46,977 nt of DNA, from NCBI GenBank assembly GCA_964610765.1, contig CAZSWS010000014.1, positions 1-46,977 of the forward strand, given 5' to 3'. Source of the DNA: an uncultured Parabacteroides sp. (GTDB taxonomy: Bacteria; Bacteroidota; Bacteroidia; Bacteroidales; Tannerellaceae). This document shows, piece after piece, positions 17,876 to 46,954 of the stretch (positions within the stretch are counted from its first letter, which is position 1; each line of letters begins with the position of its first letter). The notes under the pieces are model-generated. The model was not told where the DNA came from, did not search any database, and saw nothing but the letters and a program-made list of their open reading frames with translations. Both the position numbers and the translations under genes were made by a program.

Positions 17876-17893
17876 TCTCAAAAAGTAACCATA

Positions 17894-20983: not shown

Positions 20984-20994
20984 TAATATTCGTC

Positions 20995-23016
20995 ATGAAA
21001 AATAAAATAAAAAAGCAATTCTCAAAAATAGCAGCAACCTTAATCGTTTGTTTTAGCTGCTGTTTTCAGTCATGCGATTTCCTTGATATAGACCCCTATA
21101 TAGCAGACTTATTTACATTAGACACCGTATTTAAAAAGAAGGAGTATACCGAGAAATATTTAAATAATATTTACTCATATCTTGTTGACTATGGATCAGC
21201 AAGTGCCTGGACACCTAATTCAATGCCCTACTCACTAATTACGGATGAAGGAATCGCTGGATACAAAAGACACACACACAACTATAACTACTTCTGCAAC
21301 AACGAAATGAAAGCAGAAAGCTTGGAAAACTTTGACCGTTGGGATTATTTTTATGAAGGAATTCGAAAAGCTAACACCTTTATTCTACGAGTTAATGAAT
21401 GTCAAGAGGTTTCAGCCTTACAACGATCTGAATGGATGGGAGAGGCTAAGTTTATCAAAGCAAATCTATACTTTGAATTAATGCTTGCACATGGTCCAAT
21501 CCCTATTGTACCGGATGAACCCGTAAGCTTTGATACTCCTATAGAACAAATGATGCTTGAGCGAAATACTTGGGATGAATGCAATGATTATGTGAGCAAT
21601 CTTTTAGAAGAATCGATCAAACTCCTACCTTACAGTATTAGAGATAATTCACAAATGGGAAAACCAACAAAAGCTTCTGCTATGGCTGTCCTTTCCCGAC
21701 TTACATTATATACAGCTAGCCCTTTATACAACGGACAAAACTCCGAGTTCTCCAACTTTAGAAATGAAGCAGGTATACCTTATCTAAATCCGGAAAAAAA
21801 CATGGAAAAATGGGCTATTGCAGCTGCTAATGCTAAACGATTATTAACCGATTCTAATTACGAGAACCTTTCTCTTTACACGGTACCTAAAATGGAGAAT
21901 ACACCTCTGCCTCCTGTTCCAGGACATGAACAAGCAGACTTCCCAAACGGTGTAGGAGGAATTGACCCCTATCATTCATATGCTGACATGTTTAACGGAG
22001 AATGCGTCTTGGCTTCAACTAATCTGGAAATATTATTTTCTAAGCAAAATGGCACGACAGGCACCCGCTATAGCATTCCCGGGATGATAGATGGCTGGGG
22101 AGTATTTTTCATTCCACAAAGTCTAGTTGACGCATATTACATGGTAGATGGTAGAGACATTAGCGATGCTAGCGATAAATATCCTTACGAAAATGGCTTC
22201 ACAAACAATGAAGTCACTTTTTCCGGCGCAAAAGATGGGAATGGCTTCACCATATTAAGCGAAACCTATAAATGGTATGTCAATAGAGAAATGCGTTTTT
22301 ATGCAACCATAGGATACAACAATTCATATTATCCATCAACATCTACTCCACCGGACAAAATAGACCAGCAAGATGGAAAAATTGCAAAGTTTTACAGAGA
22401 CTCTAAAGGGGGAAAAGACTATGCCTTAAACCGTCCATCAGGTGAGGCAGAAGAATATCCTATGACCGGATATCTATGTCGCAAGTTCGTTCATTATGAA
22501 GACTCCTATATTTCTGGAGGACGCGAAAAAACAAAATACACCATCTCTTATCGTTTAGCCGAGGTATATATGAATTATGTTGAAGCTATGAACGAATTAG
22601 ATCAATCATATACTATTGGGGAAATTACTGTATCTAGAGATGTACAAGAAATAAAAAAATACTTCAATAGAGTAAGATACAGGGTTGGTTTACCCGGTAT
22701 AACCGATGCTGATGTCGCCAATGTTGAAAGAATGAGAGAGCTTATAGAACGTGAACGAAGAATTGAATTTGCATGGGAAAGTCGACGATACCATGATTTA
22801 CGTCGTACAAAAAGAGCTATTATTTTCGAGAATGCACCAATTACCGGCTGTGACGTAGATGTAACAACGGCTAATCCTGAAGCTTACTACAACATCATAC
22901 AGGTGAAAGAACGGAACTGGATTTACAAAGTATTTACCAACAGGCAAACGTTTCTTCCTATTCCTAAAAGAGAAGTAGATAAAAACAGGAAACTAGATCA
23001 AATGCCCGGTTTCTAA
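20995..23016 (+). CDS. SusD/RagB-family nutrient-binding outer-membrane lipoprotein.
   Basis: 673 aa. The lipobox is CFSCCFQSC. The all-alpha/TPR-like composition fits SusD-like proteins. It lies immediately downstream of SusC. Confidence 0.85.
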   Translation: MKNKIKKQFSKIAATLIVCFSCCFQSCDFLDIDPYIADLFTLDTVFKKKEYTEKYLNNIYSYLVDYGSASAWTPNSMPYSLITDEGIAGYKRHTHNYNYFCNNEMKAESLENFDRWDYFYEGIRKANTFILRVNECQEVSALQRSEWMGEAKFIKANLYFELMLAHGPIPIVPDEPVSFDTPIEQMMLERNTWDECNDYVSNLLEESIKLLPYSIRDNSQMGKPTKASAMAVLSRLTLYTASPLYNGQNSEFSNFRNEAGIPYLNPEKNMEKWAIAAANAKRLLTDSNYENLSLYTVPKMENTPLPPVPGHEQADFPNGVGGIDPYHSYADMFNGECVLASTNLEILFSKQNGTTGTRYSIPGMIDGWGVFFIPQSLVDAYYMVDGRDISDASDKYPYENGFTNNEVTFSGAKDGNGFTILSETYKWYVNREMRFYATIGYNNSYYPSTSTPPDKIDQQDGKIAKFYRDSKGGKDYALNRPSGEAEEYPMTGYLCRKFVHYEDSYISGGREKTKYTISYRLAEVYMNYVEAMNELDQSYTIGEITVSRDVQEIKKYFNRVRYRVGLPGITDADVANVERMRELIERERRIEFAWESRRYHDLRRTKRAIIFENAPITGCDVDVTTANPEAYYNIIQVKERNWIYKVFTNRQTFLPIPKREVDKNRKLDQMPGF

Positions 23017-23049
23017 AGCACATATGATAAACTCTAAAAAAACAATTCT

Positions 23050-23946
23050 ATGAAACTACATATTTTTAAAATCGCTATTTTCTTCTTAGCACTAGGAGTT
23101 TTTGCTTCATGTGACAGCAATCCTGTTGTCGATTTTGGAGAGCAGTATAAAAAGACCATCTATATTGTAAACTCAAGGGGAATGCTGTATAGTCAAGAGC
23201 ATTTTTACGACAATGAAGAAGGTGTTATTGAGATATCTGTTTACTGTGGTTCATCAGAACCCATTAAAAAAGACATCAATGTCACACTTAAAATCAACCC
23301 GGAAGCCTTAGACTCACTAAACAAGTTAAATTCCCTAGGAGATCCTTTATATGTCAATAAGACTATATTACCAGAAAGCCACTATGACTTTTCAAAAGGA
23401 ACTGTTACAATAAAGGCTAAAACGCAATATACACCACTCCAAATACCGATTATTACCAAAGGACTTGATGCGGATATTACGTATACTTTACCCATATCAA
23501 TTGTTTCTAATGATGCAAACTATGATATCAATCCTGAATTAAAAACAATCATATACGAGCTTAGAATGGTAAATGGATATTCCGGTAGTTTTAGTGGAAG
23601 TTCGACAGAACTACCTAAGACTATACGCTCAGTTCAGCCGACATTGAAAGCTATTTCTTCTAACACAGTACGCATGCCAATACATAACTTATCATCTAAC
23701 ATTCAAAACTTAGATACGAACTTTATGTTATTAACTATTGGAAGTGATAGTACAAGCGTCAGCATCTCTCCTTGGAAAAATGCTAAAGTCACAGATTTGG
23801 GAGGAAGCACCTTTGACAAGAAACGAAGAAATTATACCTTAAATTATTCTTTTGAGAACAAAGATGGGGTAGCTTTATCAATTCTTGAAAAAATATCTGA
23901 TATAAACTATACGGATCCTGACGAAGAAGAAGAAATTGATGAATAA
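23050..23946 (+). CDS. PUL-associated surface lipoprotein (SusE/F-position; DUF1735-like beta-sandwich).
   Basis: 298 aa. The lipobox is VFASCDSN. The body is beta-rich and the C-terminal tail is acidic (DPDEEEEIDE). Its position after SusD supports the call; the family assignment is tentative. Confidence 0.4.
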   Translation: MKLHIFKIAIFFLALGVFASCDSNPVVDFGEQYKKTIYIVNSRGMLYSQEHFYDNEEGVIEISVYCGSSEPIKKDINVTLKINPEALDSLNKLNSLGDPLYVNKTILPESHYDFSKGTVTIKAKTQYTPLQIPIITKGLDADITYTLPISIVSNDANYDINPELKTIIYELRMVNGYSGSFSGSSTELPKTIRSVQPTLKAISSNTVRMPIHNLSSNIQNLDTNFMLLTIGSDSTSVSISPWKNAKVTDLGGSTFDKKRRNYTLNYSFENKDGVALSILEKISDINYTDPDEEEEIDE

Positions 23947-24048
23947 AAATTATCCCCATCAATAGAAGTATCACACTCTTTTCACTATAAAAATTGTTGG
24001 TGATATACACAGATTATTCCTGATAAGTTTAAAGTATATATTTTAACT

Positions 24049-26223
24049 TTGAATCTTATCAGGAATAACTTATTTCATCATATGCCATCGGGCAGAAAGA
24101 CATTTCTTATTTTTTTAACCACATTAAGCTTTGCAGATATGAAAAAAAGATTACCAATTTCACTCATTGTTTTCTCTCTCATAAGTATCACCCAACTACT
24201 AGCCTTATCCATCAACAACACCCCCGACTATAAGCAGCCTGTTTATCATCTTTCCAACCTAGCAGTATCCATGGATGGCTACGATAATGAAATACGAACT
24301 GGGATTAGAATTTTAAAAGACGAGTGGACTTTAGAAGCTTGGGTAAAAGGAGATGATAAAAGCTGGAAAGAATATGAAGTTATCATTGGAGGGGGTGAAT
24401 ACAGCGAATTAAATTCTTGTGACAACATGCCTCTTGTACTGAAAGAAGGAAAATTACATTGCAAGGGGGCTAATATTTCCGCCTCTACGGTACTAGATGA
24501 TCAATGGCATCATATTGCTGCAAGTTGTGATGGCAAACAAACCACACTTTTTCTTGATGGGACAATAGTAGCTCAAGCGGATACAGCTATAGCAATCCTT
24601 CCTGGCGCGATAGGCTCAAACAAAAAAGGACAAACTTGGGGAGGTTTAATTGACGAGGTTAGAATCTGGGACACAGCCTTATCTCAAGCAATACTCAAAA
24701 AGTGGAAAAACAAATCACTAGAAGCTAGCCATCTACATATAAATAACTTAATCGCATATTATCCTTTTGATGACTTTAAAGATGAATTATCTATTAACTG
24801 GGTTGGTCAAGGTCATCAATCATATCATATTCGTAATGGAAGAATAGACTTTTACGGTTCACTTTCCAAAGCATATACAGTAGTTAATGACAATCCTCAG
24901 TTCATCCCTTATAAAGGCAATCAAACAGTATTTAATGCTGTCAGTGTTAATAGTGAGTGGGATGTAGACCAAAATGCTAAGGACTGTCAGATAATCAAAT
25001 TAAGAATAGCTGTCAATGGAAATGACAACCCCCTAAAACTAACTAAAGTAGTTCTCGATTTATCAGAAAACACGTCATTAAACGATATTTCTAAGATTCA
25101 TTTATATCAAACCGGAAAATATCCAAATTCGAAAGAGAGAAATAAATTATGTGGTACAGGTGTATATCCCGGCAGAAAAAAAACACTTGAAATAAATCCG
25201 AGTGAAAACACTTACTTATCACAAGGCATTAACTATTTCTTAATCACATTTGACATAGATAAAAAAGCTAAAATCAATAATACTATTCATGCATCTATTT
25301 CCTCATTCACTCTAAACAACAAAACATATATTCCAGAAAAAGACCACGATTTTATCAAACAAAAAGTGGTAAAAAACAGTAGCGAAGATGCTAATATTCT
25401 GAAGGTTTTACAGTGGAATATATGGCATGGGGGTGTACATTTAGGTAAACATCAAGGAAGAGAACGCATTATAGATTTGATACAAAAAACGAATGCTGAT
25501 ATCATAACAATGCAAGAAGGCTATGGTGCACAAGATACAATCGCCTCATCAATCGGTTTCTACCTACAAACTAACTCCCCTAAAGACAATTTGGCACTTC
25601 TTAGCAGATATCCTATTAAACAACGTATTATATCAGAAGAGCCATTCAAATCAAACCCTGCAATTATTTCATTACCAAATAACAAACGTATATTAGTTAA
25701 CGATTGTTGGCTACGCTACTCCCATAATCCGGAATATACAAGTTTATATGCAAGCAACGGGTTAGATCCAGACTTATGGATCAGAGAAGATTCTCTCCTA
25801 CCTTTAGTTGATATCAAGAACCTAATAAGCAAAGATATAGAACCTTATATGGAAGAACATGACATGCCTATTATTATTGGAGGTGATTTTAATTCCGGGA
25901 GCCATTTAGACTGGACTGAAAAAGCCAAACATCTCCATAACGGTTATGGTCCTGTGAATCTTCCTGTATCTCAACACCTAGTATCTGAAGGATTTAAGGA
26001 TAGTTTCAGAGAAGCATACCCTGATGAAGTTTATTATCAAGGGGGAACATTTGCTGTAATTTTTGGACAGCTGCAAGACTCTAGGATAGACTACATCTAT
26101 TACAAAGGGAAAGGCATGAAAGTTCTTGCATCTAAGATTATCCGTTCATCATACGAAATTGATGATGTATGGGCATCTGATCATGCTGCTGTTATTACTG
26201 TTTTTGACACAAGCGAAAAATAA
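24049..26223 (+). CDS. Secreted LamG-like lectin domain fused to an endonuclease/exonuclease/phosphatase (EEP) family phosphoesterase.
   Basis: 724 aa; the probable true start is MKKRLPISLIVFSL at 24139, which has a signal peptide. The N-terminal segment WTLEAWVK...LFLDGTIVAQAD...DEVRIWDTALSQ matches the LamG/ConA-like fold. The C-terminal LKVLQWNIWHGG, DIITMQEGYG, GGDFNSGSHLDW and WASDHAAV match EEP catalytic motifs. Confidence 0.65.
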   Translation: MNLIRNNLFHHMPSGRKTFLIFLTTLSFADMKKRLPISLIVFSLISITQLLALSINNTPDYKQPVYHLSNLAVSMDGYDNEIRTGIRILKDEWTLEAWVKGDDKSWKEYEVIIGGGEYSELNSCDNMPLVLKEGKLHCKGANISASTVLDDQWHHIAASCDGKQTTLFLDGTIVAQADTAIAILPGAIGSNKKGQTWGGLIDEVRIWDTALSQAILKKWKNKSLEASHLHINNLIAYYPFDDFKDELSINWVGQGHQSYHIRNGRIDFYGSLSKAYTVVNDNPQFIPYKGNQTVFNAVSVNSEWDVDQNAKDCQIIKLRIAVNGNDNPLKLTKVVLDLSENTSLNDISKIHLYQTGKYPNSKERNKLCGTGVYPGRKKTLEINPSENTYLSQGINYFLITFDIDKKAKINNTIHASISSFTLNNKTYIPEKDHDFIKQKVVKNSSEDANILKVLQWNIWHGGVHLGKHQGRERIIDLIQKTNADIITMQEGYGAQDTIASSIGFYLQTNSPKDNLALLSRYPIKQRIISEEPFKSNPAIISLPNNKRILVNDCWLRYSHNPEYTSLYASNGLDPDLWIREDSLLPLVDIKNLISKDIEPYMEEHDMPIIIGGDFNSGSHLDWTEKAKHLHNGYGPVNLPVSQHLVSEGFKDSFREAYPDEVYYQGGTFAVIFGQLQDSRIDYIYYKGKGMKVLASKIIRSSYEIDDVWASDHAAVITVFDTSEK

Positions 26224-35232: not shown

Positions 35233-37029
35233 ATGATAAAACGCACACGCCTTCTAATAGTTCTAACTTGCTTGTTTTTTTCAACAAATATACTCTATAC
35301 AAGCCAAGAAACGCAGGGTGAGCCGGGAACACAGTCCGCTTTCACTCATCGAATTGATTCCCTTGTCACCCTTTCCAAGCATGTATCCGGTCTGGAACGA
35401 ATCAATATTTACACGACTTTGCATACTATTTTATATTCGTATAATGATGCGGAAGCACATATTCAGTTGATGCATCGTTTTTTAAATATTACTAAGACCG
35501 AAAAAGATGAATTCGGGATGGCAAATGCCTATATGTTTTTAGTAGATGCGCTATACAATTATGACTATCCTCTAAACACGCTTCAAAAAGAAGCATTAGA
35601 AGCATTAGACGTTATTCGATATCTTGATTTTAAAAACGCCGAAATCATCTATTTCAATATAGCTGACCACCTGTTAATGAGATATCTGGCTTCAAAAAAA
35701 TATGAAAAAACATTGGCTTTAGGCAAAAAAATATATAAAGAGGCCAAAGAAAAGGAGTGTAGCTATGGACTGGCAGTCGCTCTTAAAAGCATGGGAAACA
35801 GCTATGATGCCCTCAAGGGTTATGATAAAGCAATCGAAGTGCACAAAGAAGTTATATCAATCAAGGGCGACGAATATACTTCTCAGGCACAGATGGATTC
35901 CTATAATTTCCTGGTAGATGTTTTAATAAAAGAAGATAGACCTAATGAAGCACTTGAGATATGTCAAAAGTTTGAAGCATTTATCAAGGATGAATGCACC
36001 GACAAGCTTAACTTAGATGCAGTCACATTAGATCGGATGTGGTTCTATTGTCACCTTTCTTATGTCGAAGTATACACATATCTTGAACAATATGCTAAGG
36101 CCGAAAATTATCTTGCTCATGCCGACACTTGTTGGATGCGCCATTCAGCTATTGCCGCATTTAACTTGGAGGATAGCCAATATGAGCTATTGTTAGCACA
36201 AAAGAAATATGAAGAGGCTGAAAAAACTCTAAATCGAATGGAAAGCGAACTTGGAGATACAGATCGATTCTATAAAAAGATGCGCCTGCTATTTTATCGT
36301 GCAGATTTAAATTATGTGAGAGGAAAACATCAAGCTGCTGCCGATGAATATAGAAAATATGCCATCAAAAATGATTCCATCAATAAAGTAGAAATAGCCG
36401 ATGAGCTAAGTAGGCTGAGAACCGAATATGAGGTAGACAAACTGGAATTTCAAAAGGAACAGCAAGCCAATAATCATCGCATGGCTATTATGTGGTTTTT
36501 GATTATTTTCATCTTATTATCCTCAATCATTATCATCATCATAGTTGGCTTACAGAAGCTCCGAGTGAAAAACCGTTCGTTAATTTATCGCATTTACGAA
36601 CAAGACGAGCAAGAAAGAAGATATGAAAAAATGCAAAACCTATGGATGGAAAATACACTTATTGATGTTTCAGAAAATAAAAAAAGACCAGAAGATATTC
36701 ATTCAAGACTCAAGGAACTGATGAAAGACCCTGCCGTCTTCACCGACCCTTCTATCAACAGAAAAGACATTGCAGAAAGATTAGGTACAAACGAAAAATA
36801 TGTTTACGATACTATTAAAGAGTTTTATGGCACTAATATTTCGGACTATATAAACAAATTGCGACTTAACTACGCCCGGGCTCTGCTGGCAATTCCTAAT
36901 GATAGACGCACTGTTGATGCAATAGCTCTTGAGTCTGGCTTTAATAGCCGCAGCACCTTCTATCGCCTTTTTAAAGAGCATTACGGAATGACTCCTATTG
37001 AATTTCGTCGACTTATTGCAACTTCATAG
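35233..37029 (+). CDS. Membrane-anchored AraC-family transcriptional regulator with an N-terminal TPR-like sensor domain.
   Basis: 598 aa. The order is a signal peptide, about 400 aa of TPR-like repeats, a single TM helix (MWFLIIFILLSSIIIIIIVGL), then a C-terminal AraC HTH (LESGFNSRSTFYRLFKEHYGMTPIEFRR). Confidence 0.75.
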   Translation: MIKRTRLLIVLTCLFFSTNILYTSQETQGEPGTQSAFTHRIDSLVTLSKHVSGLERINIYTTLHTILYSYNDAEAHIQLMHRFLNITKTEKDEFGMANAYMFLVDALYNYDYPLNTLQKEALEALDVIRYLDFKNAEIIYFNIADHLLMRYLASKKYEKTLALGKKIYKEAKEKECSYGLAVALKSMGNSYDALKGYDKAIEVHKEVISIKGDEYTSQAQMDSYNFLVDVLIKEDRPNEALEICQKFEAFIKDECTDKLNLDAVTLDRMWFYCHLSYVEVYTYLEQYAKAENYLAHADTCWMRHSAIAAFNLEDSQYELLLAQKKYEEAEKTLNRMESELGDTDRFYKKMRLLFYRADLNYVRGKHQAAADEYRKYAIKNDSINKVEIADELSRLRTEYEVDKLEFQKEQQANNHRMAIMWFLIIFILLSSIIIIIIVGLQKLRVKNRSLIYRIYEQDEQERRYEKMQNLWMENTLIDVSENKKRPEDIHSRLKELMKDPAVFTDPSINRKDIAERLGTNEKYVYDTIKEFYGTNISDYINKLRLNYARALLAIPNDRRTVDAIALESGFNSRSTFYRLFKEHYGMTPIEFRRLIATS

Positions 37030-37687
37030 TGCTTCACATCCTCCACTTCACTCCTCCCTTTATCTATACAAAACAACTACTAGTATGGGGCATCGACTTT
37101 AATCTTTGCCCTAATCTGGTACTTTCCATAACCCTCCCTTAATCGCGGAATAATTCTCTTACTTTCTTCTCTTTTTATATACGCTACTTCCACTATCACG
37201 TATGAGTTTTCCGAGTGTTTTTTCAACTACAACCCACTGATTAGTATGTAACGAAACACCGTTCTCAGCACATCAAACATAAACCAAAAGGCATTCTTTC
37301 AAATATTGGACAAGTTATTACAAATGACGTACAAACTGTTACAGACATCGGATATCTAATTACAGATACAAGACATATTGTTCAAAATACCGCTATAATT
37401 TTGACATAAAACATCTCAGAAAGCACACTAAACAGCTATTTCAATACTAAAAACAGAAGTAACAATTAACCTATAACTATAAAAATGCAAAAGTCATGAA
37501 TACAAAAAACAAGAGAATCAGCCGACTTACTCACTCACCACCCAAGGATATGACCGAGTAGAAATATTTTTTCTGCAAAAAACAATTACTGAATGAACCT
37601 CTACTATAAAAGAGGCTTAAAAACTTCTCATCAGCTGCTTATAGCATAAACATCAATGCTGACATACATATTCAAATAGGACATAGC

Positions 37688-39058
37688 ATGATAATTGGAA
37701 AAACTAAAAAAGGATACATCTTACTACTCCTACTATTAGGGAGCTTTTCGCTTACCTATTCACAGACGGAAGAGAGTAAGCATATACTCACCTTGTTTGA
37801 CAGTCGATTCGTAGAGTTGGACTCATTGATTTTCAATCCTCAGAGAGGTTTATGGGATACAGAAGGAACCTCTCCAAAACCGGATGAAGTAGCCCAATCA
37901 ATAGATAGAGAGCTACTAGACTCCATCGTTAATAAACGAGTCCAGGCAGAAGTATCTTTATTAAAAGCAGAAACAGGTCTACAACTCACCGGACAAACCT
38001 ATTACCGACTGGATGAAGGGTATGGCCTGGACGAAGACGATGCACTCTCACGATATAAAGGGAAAATACAGGCGGAAGCCCGGTGGTATTTTTTGCAAAG
38101 CTCTCTCTATAAACGTAAAGGTCGAATCAACGAACTACAGTTAAAAGGTCAAATTGACCGCCTTGCATATGAAAAAGAAAACTTAGGTATTCTAATCGGA
38201 AAACAAAAAATGGCATTCCGATTAAAATATGATAGTCTCCTCTGTAGCGTATTACTTCACCGTATTCAAAACCTCAGTTTACTAAGCAATGCACAAAGCT
38301 ATCTTTTACTCAATGAACACATCAGTAGCGACGAGCTACTTACAATTCTGAATGAGAAAGCCGAAGCTGAACGCTTATTAGCAACTATCGATGGAATATA
38401 CGCACCCTCTTCCGACTTATCCACTCCAAAAGGAGTTGTCATACAAATAGACACATTAAGCCTGATAGATTATATCCGACAAACACATACAGATTTAAGT
38501 ACCGTTCAACTTCGTATGGACTTACTAGAACAGCAACAAAAAAATACCAGCTATTGGTCTAGCTTCAATATTGCTCCCTTTGTTCGCTATTCTTACTACA
38601 CTCGTCCACATATATCAAACTCATCGAATGTTGATGCAGGAATTGTTTTTTCATTACCAATTTCCTCTGAAACAAAACGAAAAAAAGGTGTTTTACGTGC
38701 AGAACAAGATTTACTTTCTATCGAGAAGGATCGTCTTTCTGAGCGGATTTTAGATGATGTACACCTAACCTTATTAGAAGTAGAAAGACTGAATCGCGCC
38801 TCTATAGGCGAGTACAACCGACTTGTCGAACTTAAGTCTTATCTGACTATGCGATCAGATGCATACAACAACCGCATAGGTGAATATAGCCGCCTAGCAC
38901 GCATCAAAGAGTACAATAGCTACCTCCTCTGTTGGGAGAAACTCGTCATGTTTCAATACCAAAGAGACTGCCTCGTAGCCAACCTACAAGCTTATTTGAC
39001 AGACATTCCCATTCTTAAGTTCTGCCATGAACAATCACTCTCTACTATCAATAAATAA
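37688..39058 (+). CDS. TolC-like outer-membrane efflux/factor protein.
   Basis: 456 aa. It has a signal peptide and long Leu/Gln/Glu/Arg-rich coiled-coil segments in two halves. A beta-strand-prone tail is typical of the OEP family. It is first in a co-directional six-gene locus. Confidence 0.5.
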   Translation: MIIGKTKKGYILLLLLLGSFSLTYSQTEESKHILTLFDSRFVELDSLIFNPQRGLWDTEGTSPKPDEVAQSIDRELLDSIVNKRVQAEVSLLKAETGLQLTGQTYYRLDEGYGLDEDDALSRYKGKIQAEARWYFLQSSLYKRKGRINELQLKGQIDRLAYEKENLGILIGKQKMAFRLKYDSLLCSVLLHRIQNLSLLSNAQSYLLLNEHISSDELLTILNEKAEAERLLATIDGIYAPSSDLSTPKGVVIQIDTLSLIDYIRQTHTDLSTVQLRMDLLEQQQKNTSYWSSFNIAPFVRYSYYTRPHISNSSNVDAGIVFSLPISSETKRKKGVLRAEQDLLSIEKDRLSERILDDVHLTLLEVERLNRASIGEYNRLVELKSYLTMRSDAYNNRIGEYSRLARIKEYNSYLLCWEKLVMFQYQRDCLVANLQAYLTDIPILKFCHEQSLSTINK

Positions 39059-39076
39059 CTCAAACCATAAAACAGG

Positions 39077-40459
39077 ATGAAAAACTTCGTTTACTATTCT
39101 CCGGAAGAAAAAGAAAACATAGAAGAGGTATTAAAAGAACGAAAGCGAAAAATAAATCGGCAGCAGATTATTTTTGGACTCATTTTAGGCGTCATCTTAT
39201 TCACCTTAGCATTATACCTTTTTCGCAATATATATTATACAGAGTACGATGGGTATGTACATGTAGACGTGAATCAAGTTCGCACCCCTGTTAATATGTT
39301 CTTAGATAGTGTTTTTGTAGAAGAAGGGGATGTCGTGATGCCCGGCGACACACTTTACTCCTACTATATGCTGGACATGTTTGTAGAGCAAAGCAACTTA
39401 AACAATGAGCCAGGCGTGGTCGTTATGGATCGAAACATGCAAATACGCTATGTAACATCACTTCAAAACATGAATGTGCTACGTGTTAGGATTGAAGAGC
39501 TTAAACGACAAATTGCTATTGAAAATCACAACATAAGCTTCGGTTTAAGTGATAATGCCCATAAGCTTGACCTTGAACGTGCCCTAAAAGAAGCAGAGGC
39601 ACAACTAAAAGCATTAGGACAAGAGGCTTGGATGTTGAGACAGATGAAAGACATAACAAGCAAAGGGGTGAATCGCTCCGGATATAACCCGGAAGAACCT
39701 ACTAGTATGCAGGTTTATAATGACTACCTGTCGTTCTCATCAAGAGATGCGATGGTTTATCGGCTTTCGATTGACTCTTCTATTGTAATCAAAGTATCTG
39801 CTCCAAACCGCATGGTGTTTTTTGAAAAGGAAACGATTTTATCTACTCAACACCTCAATTTAGATGCAAACAACCTACAAATATTAGCATACATACCTAT
39901 TGATAAGATGGATCGAATCACGAATAATTCTACGGCCTCTATTACCGTCAATAGAGATGTATCCTTCAAAGCACATGTATCTGTGTTAGGAACACGCACT
40001 GAAGCCATCCCTGAACACCTTCGAAGCTATTTTATGCGAAAAAATACGGCGATTATTGCCAACCTGGATATTGACCGCGGACAAGTAGTGCCTTTCTGGT
40101 CTGTAGCAGCCGGTGTACCTGTTAAAGTACGTGTTCGAAGTTTCGACTCGTGGGGCGATTATAAAGTAGGCGATTACCTGTGGTTTATAACGGGGAAAGG
40201 CTTTTATCAAAACTCGCTGGACGTATTTATCAAAAGACAGGAACTTCGTAAAGCCGGACATGAAAGAACCACCCCCGAAGAGTTAGAACGCTTAGTTCCG
40301 GGTTCTGATAATCCTTATATCCTGAAAACACCTTTGACAAACAGAACTGATTCTCTAAAAAAGGTTCAACCTAGTCCACTAGAAAAAGAAGTTGCCCCAA
40401 CAGAAACAAAAGATTCCTCAGATGTGAAAATTCATAACAATCAACAGAACAATGAATAA
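39077..40459 (+). CDS. HlyD-family periplasmic adaptor (membrane-fusion protein).
   Basis: 460 aa. An N-terminal cytoplasmic tail is followed by one TM helix. The lipoyl-like half-motif is GYVHVDVNQVRTPVNMFLDSVFVEEGDVVMPGDTLYSYYMLD. A long coiled-coil and a beta-barrel region follow. Confidence 0.6.
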   Translation: MKNFVYYSPEEKENIEEVLKERKRKINRQQIIFGLILGVILFTLALYLFRNIYYTEYDGYVHVDVNQVRTPVNMFLDSVFVEEGDVVMPGDTLYSYYMLDMFVEQSNLNNEPGVVVMDRNMQIRYVTSLQNMNVLRVRIEELKRQIAIENHNISFGLSDNAHKLDLERALKEAEAQLKALGQEAWMLRQMKDITSKGVNRSGYNPEEPTSMQVYNDYLSFSSRDAMVYRLSIDSSIVIKVSAPNRMVFFEKETILSTQHLNLDANNLQILAYIPIDKMDRITNNSTASITVNRDVSFKAHVSVLGTRTEAIPEHLRSYFMRKNTAIIANLDIDRGQVVPFWSVAAGVPVKVRVRSFDSWGDYKVGDYLWFITGKGFYQNSLDVFIKRQELRKAGHERTTPEELERLVPGSDNPYILKTPLTNRTDSLKKVQPSPLEKEVAPTETKDSSDVKIHNNQQNNE

Positions 40460-41876
40460 AAAGAAGTACGATATTATTACAAACATCAACAATCGACGTA
40501 TTTTGGTCATCAACGACATACTCGACATTGAGCAAACACCTGCGTTAACATTCAATGATTTTGATGCAATTTTCTTGAATTTAACCAGTTCTATCACTGA
40601 GAAAAATCTACTTGCTATTCGGTTAGCATCTCCCCTACTCTCTGAAAAATGTCGTTTTAAGCCTTGCTATGTGACGCAAAGACTCCGCGGATGCCTTGAA
40701 CTTGATGGCATCACGATAGATGGATATGCAGTCACCCCTCATGCGAAAAACATGACGAATGGGATTGAGGAACTTTACCATAGGATGAGCCGAATAAACT
40801 TTTTACTAGATACAAAACCCGTTGTAAGTAGTGGTGAAGAGTTTTTCCGAATTTTCCGCTATGCTATCTCGCGTGGTCGGTTTACTTTCACCAGCCGACC
40901 CATTCCGGGGTTAAATATTGGAGCTACGTCCTTGTTTTCATATACCCAAACTAACAGGTGTTGCGAAATGCAACGCACCGGTCAGCACCATTTTTGTTAC
41001 GCTCAATTATTAAAGCAAGGTTATATTCGATATTTGCGTTTTGTAGAAAAAATACACCTATGCCCTCATTGCGGAAATAGTCATTTGCTCTTTATAGAAA
41101 CTTGCCAAAAATGCAACAGCTCGAATATCATTGAAGAGCCTGTATTGCATCATTTTAGATGTGCAAATGTAACACCCGAGTCTACTTATCAATGGGATGG
41201 AGCGCTAAGATGCCCTAAATGCAAACACTACCTTCGTCATATTGGTATAGATTATGACCGACCGTCAGCCATATATACCTGTCAGCAATGCGATAACTCG
41301 TTTGTACATGCAGGTATGCGCGTGCTGTGCACCTCTTGCAAAAAAACGTCAAAAACAGAAGAACTTCTTCCTGAAAACATCGAAGAGTTTGAATTCACGG
41401 CTGAAGGAATCAAAGCATTTGCTTCATACGAAATCATTCAAACACTTTCGCAGGTAGCCTTCACCGGCTACTCTTCCATGGGTGATTTCACCAATTATAT
41501 CCGGATGATAGCCTTATCAGACGACAAAAAGAAAAACGCATTAATCATCATACGTTTTTTAATTTCAGAATCTATGTCTGACAAAAACGATCGAACAACG
41601 ACCATCCTGCCCGTGGTATATGCCATGAAGCGTTTCTCTAACTATAAAAGCACTATATGGAAGAACAACTACTTTTTTGCAGCCTATGTTCCTGAAGGAG
41701 ATATTGCAAGAATGAGAGAAGAAATGAAACAAGAACTAAAGTCACAATTATCCAACTACCAAGAAGAGCATAAAGACTTTCAGTTTGAACTTATTAAAGC
41801 TCACACATACTACGCCGGTAACGATGTTGAGCTATTCATTAATACGATTAAAAACGACCCCATTCATCAAGAATGA
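40452..41876 (+). CDS. Cysteine-rich hypothetical protein: an N-terminal receiver-like region plus a multi-zinc-ribbon (5x CxxC) domain.
   Basis: 474 aa. Its start overlaps the HlyD stop by 8 nt. The CxxC pairs are CPHC, CQKC, CPKC, CQQC and CTSC, plus HHFRC, all within about 110 aa. The N-terminus RRILVINDILD...FDAIFLNL resembles a degenerate REC fold. No TM helices are present. Confidence 0.45.
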   Translation: MNKKKYDIITNINNRRILVINDILDIEQTPALTFNDFDAIFLNLTSSITEKNLLAIRLASPLLSEKCRFKPCYVTQRLRGCLELDGITIDGYAVTPHAKNMTNGIEELYHRMSRINFLLDTKPVVSSGEEFFRIFRYAISRGRFTFTSRPIPGLNIGATSLFSYTQTNRCCEMQRTGQHHFCYAQLLKQGYIRYLRFVEKIHLCPHCGNSHLLFIETCQKCNSSNIIEEPVLHHFRCANVTPESTYQWDGALRCPKCKHYLRHIGIDYDRPSAIYTCQQCDNSFVHAGMRVLCTSCKKTSKTEELLPENIEEFEFTAEGIKAFASYEIIQTLSQVAFTGYSSMGDFTNYIRMIALSDDKKKNALIIIRFLISESMSDKNDRTTTILPVVYAMKRFSNYKSTIWKNNYFFAAYVPEGDIARMREEMKQELKSQLSNYQEEHKDFQFELIKAHTYYAGNDVELFINTIKNDPIHQE

Positions 41877-41891
41877 GTAAAAGAAAATATC

Positions 41892-43214
41892 ATGCTGGAC
41901 TATGCATTTGAAATATTTGATGGCATCGTTGCTTGTTTTACATCGAACCTATCGTGGAGATCTACCATAGCTACCTTTTGGTTTCTTTTCTTTGTGGACT
42001 TTCCTCGCTACTATTTATTGGATTTTGTTGCGGCAGGAAGACATGGATTTACTTGGCGTTCACGCCGTAAAAAAAGAGAATTAGCCCGGCGAATGCTTTA
42101 CATTGAAAAGCCTTTCATAAGTATACTTGTTCCCGGAAAAAACGAAGGGAAACACATTTATGCCTTATTGAAGTCAATTCGTGAACAGACATACACCAAC
42201 TATGAAATTATCATCATTGACGATGGATCGGATGACACAACACCAATGGTCTGTCGAGATTTGGACCAAGCCGGGCTGATTGATAAATATTACCGCCTTT
42301 TTGATCGAGGAGGAAAAGCCTCAGCAGCTAATTATGGAGCCTATTATGCTAAAGGAAAATATATCGTTCACATGGACGCTGACAGTTCTTTAGACCGGGA
42401 TGCCATTGAAAAGATATTGATTCCATTTTATTATGACCGAAGGATAAAAGGCGTAGGAGGCTGTGTGAAGGTTCGCAATGCTTATGCAACTGTTTGTACA
42501 GCTATGCAAGCTTTAGAGTATTTAAGATGCATCCTGATTGGGCGAATGGTCACTAATATGTTTGGGCTATACCACATTATATCGGGAGCTTTCGGAGCTT
42601 TTGAAGCCGAAACAATCCGCCAGTTGGGTTGTTGGGACGTAGGACCGGGTATGGATGGAGACATCACACAAAAAATACGCAAAGCCGGCTATAAGGTTTG
42701 GTTCGCAGAAGATTCAATCTGTATGACAAACGTGCCCGAAAAATGGAAAGATTTATATCTGCAGCGATATCGTTGGTCGAAATCATTGGTGAGGTTCCGG
42801 ATTCGTAAACACAGAGACATCTTCAGAGCAGATAAGAATTTCTCATTTTCAAATATGTTCTCAAACTTAGACTGCATCTTTTATGACTTTATCTTGAACT
42901 ACATCTGGTTCTTCTACATCATCACACTCATATTTGCTAATACTGATCGACTTTGGGAGATTATCGTTGTTGCTTGGTTGATTCGTTTTTCATTCACACT
43001 GCTTGCTTTCCTTGTCATTCAGTGTGTATCAGAAAGAGCCAGAGAAGAAAGGGCCTTGGGTTGCTATCTGTTGCTGTCTACACTTTATATAGGTTATTTC
43101 TTACGCACAGTTCGCTTAATAGGGCATACAGCTGAATTATTCTTTTTCTCCTCCTATAAAGATAGATGGAATCCCAAAAAGACCTCTATCGTGGCAAGAG
43201 TTGAACATATTTAA
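41892..43214 (+). CDS. Processive family-2 glycosyltransferase (PgaC/IcaA/NodC-like polysaccharide synthase).
   Basis: 440 aa. The motifs are the DxD element IIIIDDGSDDTT, the HMDADS element, and LQRYRWSKS (QxxRW). The GT domain is flanked by N-terminal TM helices (2) and C-terminal TM helices (3-4), as in PgaC. Confidence 0.8.
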   Translation: MLDYAFEIFDGIVACFTSNLSWRSTIATFWFLFFVDFPRYYLLDFVAAGRHGFTWRSRRKKRELARRMLYIEKPFISILVPGKNEGKHIYALLKSIREQTYTNYEIIIIDDGSDDTTPMVCRDLDQAGLIDKYYRLFDRGGKASAANYGAYYAKGKYIVHMDADSSLDRDAIEKILIPFYYDRRIKGVGGCVKVRNAYATVCTAMQALEYLRCILIGRMVTNMFGLYHIISGAFGAFEAETIRQLGCWDVGPGMDGDITQKIRKAGYKVWFAEDSICMTNVPEKWKDLYLQRYRWSKSLVRFRIRKHRDIFRADKNFSFSNMFSNLDCIFYDFILNYIWFFYIITLIFANTDRLWEIIVVAWLIRFSFTLLAFLVIQCVSERAREERALGCYLLLSTLYIGYFLRTVRLIGHTAELFFFSSYKDRWNPKKTSIVARVEHI

Positions 43215-43385
43215 TCTTAAAAAAACAGTCAATATGAAACAACACATGATTTTTTGTTAAATAACTCAAACCCATGAAAATAAAAGATCTGTGATGTTAC
43301 GATTGCGTTATAAATAAGTAAAGGTGTACGGGATTGCTCACGCAATTCCATACTACCTGAGTATTAAACAAATTATTATTCTAGT

Positions 43386-44666
43386 ATGAATGAAAAAAAA
43401 ACTGAAATAGGCATTATCGGCTTAGGCTATGTCGGGTTTCCTCTGGCTTGTCTTTTCGCATGTAAATATGCGGTAATTGGTTATGATTTAAACGAAAAAA
43501 GGGTCAATGAGATTAATAATGGTCGTGATGAAACCCAAGAAGTAGCTTCAGAAAAGATTGATAATGCGCTAAAAAACGGGTTAGTCTGCACGACTAACAA
43601 AGAGCTACTCAAACCATGTAATATCTACATCGTAGCAGTACCTACACCTGTAGACAAACGCAATCTACCGGATTTATCACCCCTTGAAAGGGCAAGCAAA
43701 TTGATAGGTGAAGTCATTTCAGCAGGTGATATCGTCATCTATGAGTCAACCGTTTCTCCGGGAACGACTGAAGAGTTTTGCGCACCTATCATAGAGCAAG
43801 TATCAGGGCTCAAACTTAATAGAGATTTTTATCTTGCTTATTCGCCCGAACGCATCAACCCCGGAGACAAAACACGTACCATAGAGCATATCTGTAAAAT
43901 AACTTCCGGTTCAACTCCTGAAGCAGCCGAACGGGTAGATGAGCTTTACAACTCTGTATTGTTGAATGGAACCTTCCGAGCGGCCTCTATAAAAGTAGCT
44001 GAGGCTGCCAAAATCTTAGAAAACACACAAAGAGACGTAAATATCGCGCTCATAAACGAGATAGCTACCATACTTAACAAACTCGATATTAGCACAGAAG
44101 AAGTATTAAAAGCTGCGGGTACAAAGTGGAACTTCTTACCTTTTACACCAGGTTTAGTAGGCGGCCATTGTATCAGTGTTGACCCCTATTACCTGATAGA
44201 AAAAGCAAACTCTATCGGCATCGTTCCAAGAATTATTATTGAGGCCAGAAGAGTTAATAATACGATGGGCACCTATATTGTAGAGCAAGTGATACATCAT
44301 CTAAATCAGGTCGGCATACCTATTTGCAACAGTCATATCCTAATTCTTGGATTTACATTCAAAGAAAACTGCCACGACACCCGCAATACAAAGGTTATAG
44401 ATATTTATAAAACTCTCTCAACATACACTCCACACATCCATGTGTTTGACCCATGGGTTGACAAACAAGATGTTAAAAAGAACTATGGTCTTCAAATAGA
44501 GACCAGCAAAGAGAATCTGCTTGCAGGAAGTTATGACGCTGTGATTCATTGTGTAAGTCATGATTGTTTTAAGCAACTTAACCTTTCTTCTTTATGTAAG
44601 GAAGGTGGCGTCTTTTATGACGTAAAAGGTTCACTCTCTCCGGAAATTGCTACTGCAAGACTATGA
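43386..44666 (+). CDS. UDP-N-acetyl-hexosamine 6-dehydrogenase (WecC/TviB/WbpO-type nucleotide-sugar dehydrogenase).
   Basis: 426 aa. The N-terminal Rossmann motif is IGIIGLGYVGFPLA. The catalytic-cysteine motif GGHCISVDPYYL is the WecC/TviB variant rather than the Ugd variant (GGSCFPKD). Confidence 0.75.
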   Translation: MNEKKTEIGIIGLGYVGFPLACLFACKYAVIGYDLNEKRVNEINNGRDETQEVASEKIDNALKNGLVCTTNKELLKPCNIYIVAVPTPVDKRNLPDLSPLERASKLIGEVISAGDIVIYESTVSPGTTEEFCAPIIEQVSGLKLNRDFYLAYSPERINPGDKTRTIEHICKITSGSTPEAAERVDELYNSVLLNGTFRAASIKVAEAAKILENTQRDVNIALINEIATILNKLDISTEEVLKAAGTKWNFLPFTPGLVGGHCISVDPYYLIEKANSIGIVPRIIIEARRVNNTMGTYIVEQVIHHLNQVGIPICNSHILILGFTFKENCHDTRNTKVIDIYKTLSTYTPHIHVFDPWVDKQDVKKNYGLQIETSKENLLAGSYDAVIHCVSHDCFKQLNLSSLCKEGGVFYDVKGSLSPEIATARL

Positions 44667-44725
44667 GAATAAAAAATCTGCGAGTCCTACACAACCTTAG
44701 TATTAAAAAATTAAAATATTTACAC

Positions 44726-46624
44726 ATGAAAACAAGATACTTTTTATTATTTCTAACCATATTTTTATATGCGTGCACATCTCATGAAGAAGATTTGCCG
44801 GATCCTGATCCCGGAAAAGAAGAGCCGGTTTGGTCGGTCATTGATGATACTTTTAAACCCACAAAACGGATAGCATTGTTAGATTTAACTCAACGCAACA
44901 ATGAAGATGAATCCGGCAACATAAATGGACGGAATCTTTATTCGGCCGAATATATGCTAGAAATTGCAGGCACACCATCTTTCACAACCAAAGACATTAA
45001 AGAAGCGATAGAAAAAGGAAGCGTCATCCTTTTTTCTTCTCCGGTATTGAGCAACACATTTACTTCGATAGAGTTAGACGAATTGCTTGAATGGGTAAGA
45101 AGTGGTGGAATAATTGTGTCTCCTGCACTTGTAAATATCACCAGCCAAACCGAGCTTTTATTTGGCATTACTGATTCAAAATACAACAAATTAAGGCATA
45201 GCATCTTCTGGGAAAGTAGCCAAATGACCGAAAAAGAGCTGGAGTATATGGATGAGGAAGAAGAAAAAAGTATTTCGACTGGAAAAGAAGGAGACACATC
45301 CGGCCAAGCCATAAAGTCTTATGGCTATACGGTATCAAGTGCAGATGTGCTTGCTTCATTCAATTCGGGCGAAGCAGCTGTGGTTCACAACAAATTAGGT
45401 GACGGGACCGTCTATTCTTTTGGATTGTTATGGCGAGACATCATTCAACGCTCACAACTCAATAAAGACTTCTCTGCTTCCCGCATATTCAGCAATGGTT
45501 TTGAACCTTCAGCAGATATCATACCTCTTTTCATTCGATCTCTTTACACTAAACATCAACCAACAGTTGTTTGGAAGTTTACCATACCGGATGGATTTCA
45601 GAGCGTCCTAATTCCGACACATGATTGCGACTCAAGAACAGCCTATGATGAAATGTGGCATATGTCTACGTATGAAAAGAAAATCGGTTTGAAAGCACAT
45701 TATTTTATAACCATACACTATTTTCGTGATAAGTCTTATTTATCTGCATTTTATGACGATGATGCTATCAAAAAGTGTAAAGAACTACTGGAAGATGGTC
45801 ATAGCATTGGCAGTCATAGCATTGGACACTTTCTCGATTTTTCAGTTACTGAACGATTTCCCATGACGATTGTCTCAAAAGACACCTATCGCCCAACACA
45901 TGATATTACAACAGGAATTACCACCGATGGTTCAACGTGGGGAGAGGTTATCTTATCTAAGCAGATTATTGAGGCTGATCTCGGAAATAAAGTCAGATCG
46001 TTTCGCACAGGACACCTCGTAACCAATAAGCTTCTCCCAAAAGCTCAGTTAGAAGGTGGATATTCATTTTCTTCTTGTTTTGGAGCCGGTCACTTGTTAA
46101 GTCAATTTCCATTCCAAGAACGACTTGGCTATGAATGGATAGGTGAATTATCTTCCGTATTACAAATGCCCCTACATCTTTCTGATGTATTTACAGATGA
46201 GCCCATGGACGAAGACAACTGGAGAGAAAAAATCCCTATTTGGCTAGAAACATTAAACAAACTAAAAGGGAACTATGCCCCTGCTATTTTATTGATACAC
46301 CCAAACAGAGAGTGGAAAATGAGAGCGGAGGAAATGTTGGTTAATAAAATGGATCGGTCAACAATAGGACTTTGGAACTTTGAAGATTATGGAGACTTCT
46401 GGTTAAACAGGCGAGCATTAGATTTTGATTTTTGTTACATACCGGAAGGAAACAAAGTATTGATTAAGGCTAAACGGGAAGAGATTGTAAAAAATAGAGG
46501 ATTAGCCTTCGCTATTGAAACGCTCGTTGTTCCTAATGAAGTAATTATTGTTGATGAAAACATGTATGGATATAAATTATCACTGAAACAAATAGCAGAC
46601 AATCGATTTTTAGCTATACTATAA
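44726..46624 (+). CDS. Polysaccharide deacetylase (CE4, NodB-homology) lipoprotein with an N-terminal domain of about 270 aa of unknown function.
   Basis: The track ORF starts at 44663 and overlaps the dehydrogenase stop. The probable start is MKTRYFLLFLTIFLYAC (lipobox) at 44726. CE4 motif-1-like IPTHDCDS lies at about residue 297, and motif-2-like DGHSIGSHSIGH follows. Confidence 0.55.
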   Translation: MKTRYFLLFLTIFLYACTSHEEDLPDPDPGKEEPVWSVIDDTFKPTKRIALLDLTQRNNEDESGNINGRNLYSAEYMLEIAGTPSFTTKDIKEAIEKGSVILFSSPVLSNTFTSIELDELLEWVRSGGIIVSPALVNITSQTELLFGITDSKYNKLRHSIFWESSQMTEKELEYMDEEEEKSISTGKEGDTSGQAIKSYGYTVSSADVLASFNSGEAAVVHNKLGDGTVYSFGLLWRDIIQRSQLNKDFSASRIFSNGFEPSADIIPLFIRSLYTKHQPTVVWKFTIPDGFQSVLIPTHDCDSRTAYDEMWHMSTYEKKIGLKAHYFITIHYFRDKSYLSAFYDDDAIKKCKELLEDGHSIGSHSIGHFLDFSVTERFPMTIVSKDTYRPTHDITTGITTDGSTWGEVILSKQIIEADLGNKVRSFRTGHLVTNKLLPKAQLEGGYSFSSCFGAGHLLSQFPFQERLGYEWIGELSSVLQMPLHLSDVFTDEPMDEDNWREKIPIWLETLNKLKGNYAPAILLIHPNREWKMRAEEMLVNKMDRSTIGLWNFEDYGDFWLNRRALDFDFCYIPEGNKVLIKAKREEIVKNRGLAFAIETLVVPNEVIIVDENMYGYKLSLKQIADNRFLAIL

Positions 46625-46702: not shown

Positions 46703-46954
46703 ATGAAAGAAAATAAAGATAAACTAATCGATGAAACCTGCTGGGTATATATACAGTTAGATGAACATGGCGATTATATTATTGCTATTACTTACGATGA
46801 AGCATTTCATGAAAAAGCAAATGCAACAAAGAAGCCAATTCTATTATGGAGAAAGTTTGAAGATGCTTTTACAGCAGCAGGCTACCGAATAGTGCTCAAG
46901 TCTCTCCCCTTACCTGCCTTAAAAAAAGAGATAGAAAGGCGCTCTCCAAAATAA
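46703..46954 (+). CDS. Hypothetical small protein.
   Basis: 83-aa ORF after the CE4 gene. It has no recognisable motifs. Its coding status rests only on ORF length and strand context. Confidence 0.3.
   Translation: MKENKDKLIDETCWVYIQLDEHGDYIIAITYDEAFHEKANATKKPILLWRKFEDAFTAAGYRIVLKSLPLPALKKEIERRSPK

Follow-up and report, generated by a model that had tools for sequence, protein, structure and literature searches.

How might a polysaccharide leave the cell when its synthase is encoded beside an outer-membrane channel and a periplasmic adaptor of the kind known from pumps, and no pump is encoded with them? The question is raised by six same-strand genes at positions 37688-46624 of contig CAZSWS010000014.1 (assembly GCA_964610765.1) from an uncultured Parabacteroides sp.; the window that we analyzed is this complete NCBI contig of 46,977 nt. 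We consider it fairly probable that the locus specifies a synthase-dependent, envelope-spanning exopolysaccharide system. Its invariant unit is a cassette of four genes, encoding an outer-membrane factor (OMF), a membrane fusion protein (MFP), a protein with the zinc-ribbon domain TackOD1, and a membrane glycosyltransferase of family 2 (GT2). The original prediction, made from the letters of the DNA, had outlined all six genes, and the listing of open reading frames (ORFs) of the window confirms their number, strand and coordinates.

The cassette consists of ORF1 (OMF, 456 amino acids; 37688-39058), ORF2 (MFP, 460 amino acids; 39077-40459), ORF3 (TackOD1 protein, 474 amino acids; 40452-41876) and ORF4 (GT2, 440 amino acids; 41892-43214), all on the forward strand. 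ORF1 and ORF2 are separated by 18 nt, ORF2 and ORF3 overlap by 8 nt (AACAATGAATAA), and 15 nt lie between ORF3 and ORF4. A gap of 171 nt follows before ORF5 (43386-44666), which has a nominal overlap of 4 nt with ORF6 (44663-46624).

A scan of one genome per species returned 80 related loci from gut Bacteroidales, and the 69 non-redundant ones were compared by tblastn and ORF clustering. Carriers include Muribaculaceae, Paludibacteraceae, Paraprevotella clara YIT 11840, Barnesiella sp. WM24, Heminiphilus faecis AM35, Odoribacter, Aphodosoma and others. The order OMF-MFP-TackOD1-GT2 was kept in every one of the 69 loci whose DNA is long enough, each of the four families being found in 65 to 69 of the 69, an arrangement far beyond chance. 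In 68 of 68 loci the MFP and TackOD1 reading frames overlap or lie no more than 39 nt apart (median -1 nt), in line with the earlier proposal that the cysteine-rich protein is coupled to the adaptor; ORF3 appears to be translationally coupled to the MFP gene in the window. The six-gene order that the original prediction had put forward for a survey was thus conserved in its first four genes and not in the last two. Of the 64 loci whose downstream DNA is long enough, 30, about half, have a dehydrogenase gene like ORF5 directly after the GT2 gene, and 33 lack one. A lipoprotein like ORF6 is encoded in 6 of the 69 loci. The dehydrogenase is accordingly an accessory, and the lipoprotein a rare one. 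Two contigs titled 'Ruminococcus flavefaciens' and 'uncultured Staphylococcus sp.' (L066 and L053) hold a typical Bacteroidales cassette and are probably mis-binned or mislabelled.

The GT2 is the sole conserved polytopic membrane protein at the 69 loci. Flanks of up to 10 kb on each side were examined for ABC proteins with a signature regular expression and for other transporters among ORFs with at least six transmembrane segments, and no conserved ABC, RND or MFS pump was found. ABC signatures occurred in 4 of the 69 loci, at unrelated positions, and the other polytopic neighbours (PHO4, MFS, MscS, Gate) were sporadic and non-conserved. The locus in the window is also without a PgaA-like porin, as had been noted from the start.

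The identities of ORF1 and ORF2 are drawn from structure prediction and from scans of individual orthologues, because direct sequence searches with the two proteins against Pfam, NCBIfam and PDB gave nothing significant. For ORF1, the Pfam outer-membrane efflux family OEP (PF02321) scored below threshold (E=0.11), and it matched 12 of 31 orthologues (best E-value 9.5e-11). An AlphaFold2 model built from the alignment of the 31 orthologues reached a predicted local distance difference test score (pLDDT) of 85 and a predicted TM-score of 0.74. It contains two repeats, each with two beta-strands and a 68-residue helix (strands 98-106, 125-133, 294-305 and 312-322; helices 143-210 and 327-394). 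The TolC fold has such an internal duplication, with two beta-strands and helices of about 67 residues in each half, and its trimer forms a 12-strand barrel and an alpha-tunnel. In a Foldseek search of PDB, the top 39 matches were all OMFs (E-values 3e-12 to 2e-4, TM-scores 0.45-0.6), among them ST50, TolC, SilC, CusC, OprM, CmeC, VceC, OprN and MtrE, with alignments spanning about 430 columns at 10-12% identity. The model supports the TolC-like assignment of the original prediction and makes ORF1 a predicted TolC-fold OMF. The protein has a signal peptide and is not a lipoprotein.

Profile matches of ORF2 itself were weak (Biotin_lipoyl_2, E=0.011; EmrA, E=0.02). The protein is made up of a 30-residue cytoplasmic N-terminal tail, one transmembrane helix, a long alpha-hairpin, a beta-barrel and a disordered C-terminal tail. 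Its AlphaFold2 model has an overall pLDDT of 61, with the transmembrane helix at residues 28-53, the hairpin at 113-200 (pLDDT about 90) and a beta-rich part at 267-354; the lipoyl portion is poorly modelled. The top 41 Foldseek matches were nevertheless all adaptors (EmrA at 2e-9, MacA, AcrA, MexA, ZneB), at TM-scores of about 0.2. Among 35 orthologues, 23 matched HlyD_3, every one of them below the gathering score, 16 matched Biotin_lipoyl_2 and 7 matched HlyD_D23, and the adaptor counterpart from Candidatus Omnitrophota exceeds the HlyD_3 gathering score (31.9 bits versus 22.2). We conclude that ORF2 is an MFP of the EmrA/HlyD type, which bears out the HlyD-like reading proposed earlier. 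The best conserved segment of the adaptor is the cytoplasmic N-terminal tail, with a majority fraction of 0.84. The C-terminal ends differ among the orthologues: 10 of the 35 end in the peptidoglycan-binding domain SPOR, where ORF2 has a low-complexity tail (residues 381-460, conservation 0.18).

ORF3, predicted earlier to be a soluble protein with multiple CxxC motifs, matches Pfam TackOD1 (PF18551) over residues 152-314 with an E-value of 1.7e-42 (145.6 bits, cutoff 32). This multi-zinc-ribbon domain is preceded by an N-terminal domain (1-150) and followed by a C-terminal domain (315-474). A hydropathy scan predicted no transmembrane segment, and the protein is predicted to be cytoplasmic. 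Conserved residues are C204, C207, C218, C221, H233, H234, C237, C254, C257, C277, C280, C293 and C296, and the TackOD1 cysteines and histidines are invariant among 114 distant relatives. Two candidate identities for the flanking domains found no support. A Pfam scan of 39 family members found no Response_reg domain, and hhalign comparison of the N-terminal domain with the receiver (REC) domains of neighbouring hybrid kinases gave a probability of 0.3, aligning the beta3 region alone, with Asn in place of the phospho-accepting Asp. Comparison of the C-terminal domain with the GGDEF domains of PleD and WspR, for a degenerate, PelD-like GGDEF domain, gave 0.1, and this reading was rejected. TackOD1 was first defined in TACK archaea as an output domain linked to receivers, with 11 conserved cysteines; its describers, who reported it from thaumarchaeal type IV pilus loci, termed its function obscure (PMC5847659). 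Some of the archaeal TackOD1 response regulators carry a winged helix-turn-helix, and an insert in PriA has a similar arrangement of cysteines (PMC5847659).

The best NCBIfam model for ORF4 was PgaC_IcaA (TIGR03937; E-value 1e-44). The protein is 27% identical to E. coli PgaC over 313 amino acids (E-value 2e-34) and almost equal to it in length (440 versus 441 amino acids). The motifs D111, D162xD164, D255xD257 and Q291RxRW295 are invariant in the cassette GT2s and E. coli PgaC. A profile of the GT2 family also matched hyaluronan synthases (HAS) over residues 139-397 (2.7e-17), reaching into the transmembrane region of CvHAS, and BcsA over residues 69-352 (2e-12), as well as chitin synthases. 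Strong transmembrane segments were found by hydropathy at residues 329-347 and 357-375, with weaker N- and C-terminal ones. In processive GT2 synthases the helices after the QxxRW motif form the polymer channel, and ORF4 may have such a channel. The complete catalytic motifs, the PgaC-like length and the HAS and BcsA matches agree with the PgaC-like synthase of the original prediction, and ORF4 is probably a processive, membrane-integrated GT2. The cassette GT2s share a C-terminal cytoplasmic tail, SYKDxWNPxKTS (residues ~420-440; 43150-43214 in the window), that is missing in E. coli PgaC and may be where the TackOD1 protein docks.

A search with the TackOD1-protein profile against 1.84 billion cluster representatives extended the family to 2,195 clusters (50% identity) at E<=1e-3, and 707 at E<=1e-30. 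Most of these are 450-490 amino acids long and are matched along most of their length. Six distant members (L088, L089, L092, L093, L095 and L096) were inspected with their surroundings; L088 is on a 7.2-Mb contig, L089 is a metagenome-assembled genome of Candidatus Omnitrophota (assigned via RuvB) and L092, L093 and L095 are metagenome contigs. The TackOD1 gene adjoins a PgaC-like GT2 gene in five of the six, all except L096, and these five cassettes include an MFP-like gene in every case and an OMF-like gene (365-686 amino acids) in four. In L092 the MFP-like ORF is truncated, and ORFs upstream of it are not resolved. The OMF profile matched in L088 (6e-21) and in L093 (1e-81), where the MFP profile matched too (9e-89). 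No match to the OMF profile was obtained in L089, nor to Pfam OEP in L089 and L095, and the OMF assignment in these two stands on gene size, position and likeness by eye to the L088 protein. Because GT2-linked distant cassettes recur, one of them in Omnitrophota, the quartet is not confined to Bacteroidales.

Several of the distant proteins are variants of those in the window. The OMF-like proteins of L088 (6781-8841), L089 (9491-11524) and L095 (2991-5015) have 674-686 amino acids, including an extra C-terminal domain of about 230 residues with HLDIEP..DW and VMAY motifs and no Pfam match. The TackOD1 protein of L093 (8001-10052, 683 amino acids) is longer, the three usual parts being followed by a hydrophobic stretch and a further C-terminal domain. 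That of L096 (1435-2505) has 356 amino acids, and its 8.5-kb contig carries no GT2 gene, so that some TackOD1 proteins stand outside the cassette.

The accessory ORF5 (426 amino acids, forward strand) has all three UDPG_MGDP_dh Pfam domains and passes the NCBIfam subfamily model for NDP-sugar dehydrogenases (387 bits, cutoff 190). The earlier proposal of a UDP-N-acetylhexosamine (UDP-HexNAc) 6-dehydrogenase can be narrowed to a TviB-like enzyme (1e-145, 486 bits, under the equivalog cutoff of 592) rather than a WecC-like one (4.5e-64, 217 bits), with GlcNAc or GalNAc as the predicted substrate sugar.

ORF6 (653 amino acids as listed, forward strand) probably begins at its internal, second methionine codon at 44726, because a lipobox signal peptide (MKTRYFLLFLTIFLYAC) starts there; the 4-nt overlap with the dehydrogenase gene would therefore not be real. 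It had been predicted to be a deacetylase lipoprotein of carbohydrate esterase family 4 (CE4). The lipobox is present, and four invariant motifs, THDCD (319-323), HSxxH (HSIGH, 385-389), R448..H451 and LIHPN (544-548), fit the order of the CE4 motifs D-D, H-S/T-x-x-H, R-x-P-Y and L-x-H, as assigned by eye. Profile support stayed sub-threshold: Polysacc_deac_1 (PF01522) scored 17.2 bits against ORF6 (cutoff 23.1) and was below cutoff in 7 of 7 homologues (best 1.5e-4), and Glyco_hydro_42M matched below cutoff in 6 of 7 (best 8e-5). A PDB profile search with the ORF6 family returned no match, and looking up the exact ORF6 sequence yielded a single contig, of 3.8 kb. The protein thus appears weakly CE4-like, with an N-terminal domain that resembles GH42M (class-I amidotransferase-like). 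The idea that ORF6 is a homologue of PgaB was rejected, since hhalign against E. coli PgaB gave 0.4 and the PDB profile search was empty. With the CE4 assignment below cutoff, PgaB negative and the lipoprotein in so few loci, the pairing of GT2 and CE4 lipoprotein, which the original prediction took as the core logic of the system, does not hold.

Another lipoprotein family, of 680-840 amino acids, is encoded on the same strand as the cassette in 46 of the 69 loci (for example 15598-17937 in L037 and 13329-15845 in L007, and also 13819-16086 in L093) and is missing from the window. Its members have no Pfam match, except that one of them ends in DUF5074; the family may be a polymer-processing or anchoring component.

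Recurrent neighbours also bear on regulation. Hybrid sensor kinases of the architecture PAS-HisKA-HATPase-REC, without a DNA-binding output domain, flank the cassette in 30 of the 69 loci (for example 7855-9972 in L019 and 16938-20075 in L050) and are missing from the window, and other two-component genes lie near the distant cassettes of L092 (6006-11046) and L093 (12705-18052). Having such genes as neighbours suggests control by a phosphorelay. In the window, the cassette is preceded by a gene for a membrane-anchored regulator with TPR and AraC-type helix-turn-helix domains (35233-37029, forward strand; HTH_18 at 5e-20, TPR matches, one transmembrane segment at residues 422-440), which had been taken, with the leader, to suggest conditional expression. 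A homologue was found beside the cassette in 0 of the 69 loci, and the hybrid histidine kinases, not this regulator, are the recurrent regulatory neighbours.

The machine that we propose would work as follows. The GT2 would polymerise a chain derived from UDP-HexNAc and extrude it through its own transmembrane pore, polymerisation being the sole source of energy. A hexameric adaptor, anchored by its single transmembrane helix beside the synthase, would form a tube through the periplasm, and its alpha-hairpins would dock tip-to-tip on the trimeric TolC-like channel, so that the chain would need no TPR/porin pair such as PgaA or BcsC to exit. The TviB-like dehydrogenase of this genome would supply a UDP-HexNAc-uronic acid donor, which would probably make the polymer acidic; trimming or de-N-acetylation of the chain in the periplasm may be the task of the CE4-like lipoprotein. 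The uronic-acid building block of the original prediction can be retained where the dehydrogenase gene is adjacent, as it is in the window, and not as a general property of the system.

In the cytoplasm, the TackOD1 protein would serve the synthase as a co-factor or switch and would bind the N-terminal tail of the MFP, the SYKDxWNPxKTS tail of the GT2, or both. It would stand in for the cyclic di-GMP (c-di-GMP) receptors of proteobacterial systems and would possibly be controlled by the output-less hybrid histidine kinases. We propose such a role because of its coupling to the adaptor, the conservation of the adaptor tail, the GT2-specific tail and the frequent hybrid kinases. A link to a phosphorelay is further suggested by a Rosetta-stone argument, in that the archaeal fusion of REC to TackOD1 (PMC5847659) has a counterpart in the cassette loci, where a stand-alone TackOD1 protein occurs with output-less kinases that end in REC. 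Our confidence in this specific role is far below that in the machine as a whole.

A number of points weigh against the model. Confidence in the adaptor model is low (pLDDT and TM-scores as given above), and ORF2 itself stays sub-threshold in Pfam. ORF4 is far under the PgaC equivalog cutoff, with 153 bits versus 422. GT2s with a QxxRW motif include the non-processive ceramide glucosyltransferase and the oligomer-forming NodC. The domains that flank TackOD1 in ORF3 match neither REC nor GGDEF, and the part given to TackOD1 in the machine is purely inferential. The chemistry proposed for the window is not general, since neither dehydrogenase nor lipoprotein is conserved. The window is the whole contig, and its downstream genes are covered up to the contig end, 350 nt past the locus. 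The mechanism as a whole has been inferred from sequence.

One part of the model could be replaced with the remainder unchanged, if the TackOD1 protein were to regulate operon expression by binding DNA or RNA, being neither a subunit nor a post-translational switch. Multi-zinc-ribbons often bind nucleic acids, a point that also counts against our reading of ORF3, and the PriA insert, the use of TackOD1 as a response-regulator output domain in archaea and the winged helix-turn-helix in some of these proteins (PMC5847659) point the same way. Yet coupling to a structural membrane gene in mid-operon is rare for regulators and is strict here (68 of 68 loci), and the position of the gene between adaptor and synthase is invariant. 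We regard such a function as rather unlikely.

Alternatively, the GT2 might be non-processive and glycosylate a lipid, such as a sphingolipid or some other membrane lipid of Bacteroidota, once or a few times, with the MFP and OMF carrying the glycolipid to the outer membrane or cell surface in the manner of DevBCA-HgdD and the heterocyst glycolipids. GT2s with the D, D, D, QxxRW signature do include non-processive lipid glycosyltransferases, ORF4 has a weak match to Glyco_transf_21 (E 5e-4), a family that also appears in the precomputed Pfam matches of its orthologues, and the PgaC_IcaA score lies well below the equivalog cutoff. However, the longest and best similarities of ORF4 are to polymer synthases, namely PgaC over 313 amino acids at equal length, and HAS and BcsA through the interface and transmembrane region. 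The known glycolipid exporter needs an ABC pump, whereas none is conserved at these loci, and polysaccharide processing typically comes with accessories such as a nucleotide-sugar dehydrogenase, a CE4-like protein and further large lipoproteins of the periplasm. Glycolipid export is, in our judgement, unlikely.

It is quite improbable that the MFP and OMF serve an unlinked ABC, RND or MFS pump, exporting other cargo or the GT2 product after its release into the periplasm: structurally characterised adaptors all partner pumps, the closest structural match of ORF2, EmrA, being MFS-linked, the TolC of both S. meliloti and Thermosynechococcus is a shared housekeeping protein (PMC13438883, PMC12430437) and the contig stops so soon after the locus, but no such pump gene is conserved in the flanks of the 69 loci, the four genes are always contiguous with overlapping or nearly overlapping junctions, the same quartet recurs in a second phylum, and the OMF of the window is dedicated and operon-encoded.

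How does a synthase that drives export through an MFP and an OMF compare with known systems? PgaABCD/IcaADBC are the closest by synthase, since the GT2 is nearest to PgaC/IcaA in identity, length and motifs, and the window possibly encodes a CE4-like periplasmic lipoprotein. Unlike them, the locus has neither PgaD/IcaD nor a PgaA TPR-porin, and it has a UDP-HexNAc dehydrogenase; unlike PgaB, ORF6 is without a GH153 domain, is hhalign-negative and is sparsely distributed. The locus is not a pga/ica locus, because the equivalog cutoff was missed, PgaD and PgaA are lacking and the lipoprotein is not PgaB-like.

In alginate synthesis, the MFP-like protein Alg44 is the partner of the GT2 Alg8, with an MFP-like periplasmic part and a regulatory cytoplasmic part. 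The cassette resembles Alg8-Alg44 in combining a GT2 with an MFP-like partner in the inner membrane. It differs in that Alg44 has a cytoplasmic PilZ domain and export runs via AlgK/AlgE, not an OMF, while the regulatory module of the cassette would be a separate protein, TackOD1.

Direct precedents for the export principle exist. XcsAB-TolC has been proposed as a synthase-MFP-TolC system for the extracellular cellulose of Thermosynechococcus and other cyanobacteria (Maeda 2018, as relayed in PMC12430437), and the model is still described as unconfirmed (PMC12430437). Like the cassette, XcsA-XcsB-TolC has no BcsB/BcsC- or PgaA-type porin. The Xcs synthase is BcsA-like, carries PilZ and is controlled by c-di-GMP, its TolC is shared and encoded elsewhere, no TackOD1 protein is part of the system, and the polymer is cellulose. 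By contrast, the GT2 of the cassette is PgaC/HAS-like and without PilZ, the OMF is dedicated and encoded by the first gene of the operon, and the polymer would probably be HexNAc-based.

BgsAB-TolC was proposed in 2015 and 2026 for the mixed-linkage glucan of S. meliloti (PMC13438883). Here too, a GT2 synthase and an HlyD-type MFP are encoded in one operon; TolC is genetically required for the polymer, and a tripartite complex of synthase, MFP and OMF has been proposed (PMC13438883). BgsA binds c-di-GMP by its own C-terminal domain, and the TolC is an unlinked housekeeping protein (PMC13438883). The Bgs system is alphaproteobacterial and has no zinc-ribbon subunit, whereas the cassette is found in Bacteroidota and Omnitrophota. 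In view of XcsAB-TolC and BgsAB-TolC, a synthase that drives an MFP/OMF conduit is a prior concept and not new, and the claim that such a mechanism would be novel is overstated. Three features of the cassette do look new: its obligate TackOD1 subunit, an OMF of its own that is encoded in the operon, and its broad distribution. Its PgaC/HAS-like synthase, which carries no PilZ or other c-di-GMP module, is a further contrast with the precedents.

ORF3 itself is most readily compared with the thaumarchaeal REC-TackOD1 regulators, which share the Pfam domain and the conserved cysteines and histidines and are likewise encoded beside an envelope machine, in type IV pilus loci (PMC5847659). Unlike these, ORF3 has no recognisable receiver (hhalign, as above), carries other flanking domains and is obligately next to GT2 and MFP. 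We found no published description of the cassette in the open-access literature, which does not prove that there is none.

The remainder of the window resembles a typical Bacteroidales chromosome. Upstream genes encode a GH78/SusC/SusD polysaccharide utilisation locus, a BCCT transporter, carboxylase subunits and ArgS. The cluster resembling a polysaccharide utilisation locus lies at 13857-26223 and comprises a GH78-type alpha-L-rhamnosidase, a TIG/NHL protein, a SusC/SusD pair, a BT_3987-like protein and a BNR-associated/EEP-domain protein. The operon itself is preceded, on the forward strand, by an intergenic leader of 658 nt (37030-37687). It gave no Rfam match at E<=1, and the idea of a riboswitch or leader RNA thus found no support. 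The leader contains a single Bacteroides-type -7 box (TAATTTTG, 37396-37403), a frequency equal to chance, and scans for sigma-70 promoters and terminators were at shuffle level or uninformative. Behind the locus, an ORF of 83 amino acids (46703-46954, forward strand) without a significant Pfam or NCBIfam match has no counterpart at the related loci and recurs on one independent 3.8-kb contig (L001); it is probably outside the system. An anti-phage defence system was considered as well, and PADLOC returned no match for any protein of the locus.

If the proposed synthase-driven machine is placed in a wider frame, the quartet could be an unrecognised class of synthase-dependent secretion in more than one phylum (Bacteroidota, Candidatus Omnitrophota and probably others), with the synthase as engine and TackOD1 as the dedicated cytoplasmic activator that links a phosphorelay, not c-di-GMP, to export. 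We advance this broader reading tentatively, as a possibility that we hold with distinctly less than even confidence. The literature on gut Bacteroidales is dominated by Wzx/Wzy capsules, and synthase-dependent matrix polysaccharides are scarcely known in these bacteria. With synthase, adaptor and OMF in one compact, self-contained and genetically tractable operon, the cassette would let one ask directly if TolC-type conduits can be energised by a glycosyltransferase, an idea that in cyanobacteria and rhizobia is a proposal from genetics and modelling so far. The cassette also ties a testable role to TackOD1, which, if true, would be the first function of this domain, and it hints at a way in which exopolysaccharide production might be switched in bacteria where c-di-GMP signalling is scarce or absent.

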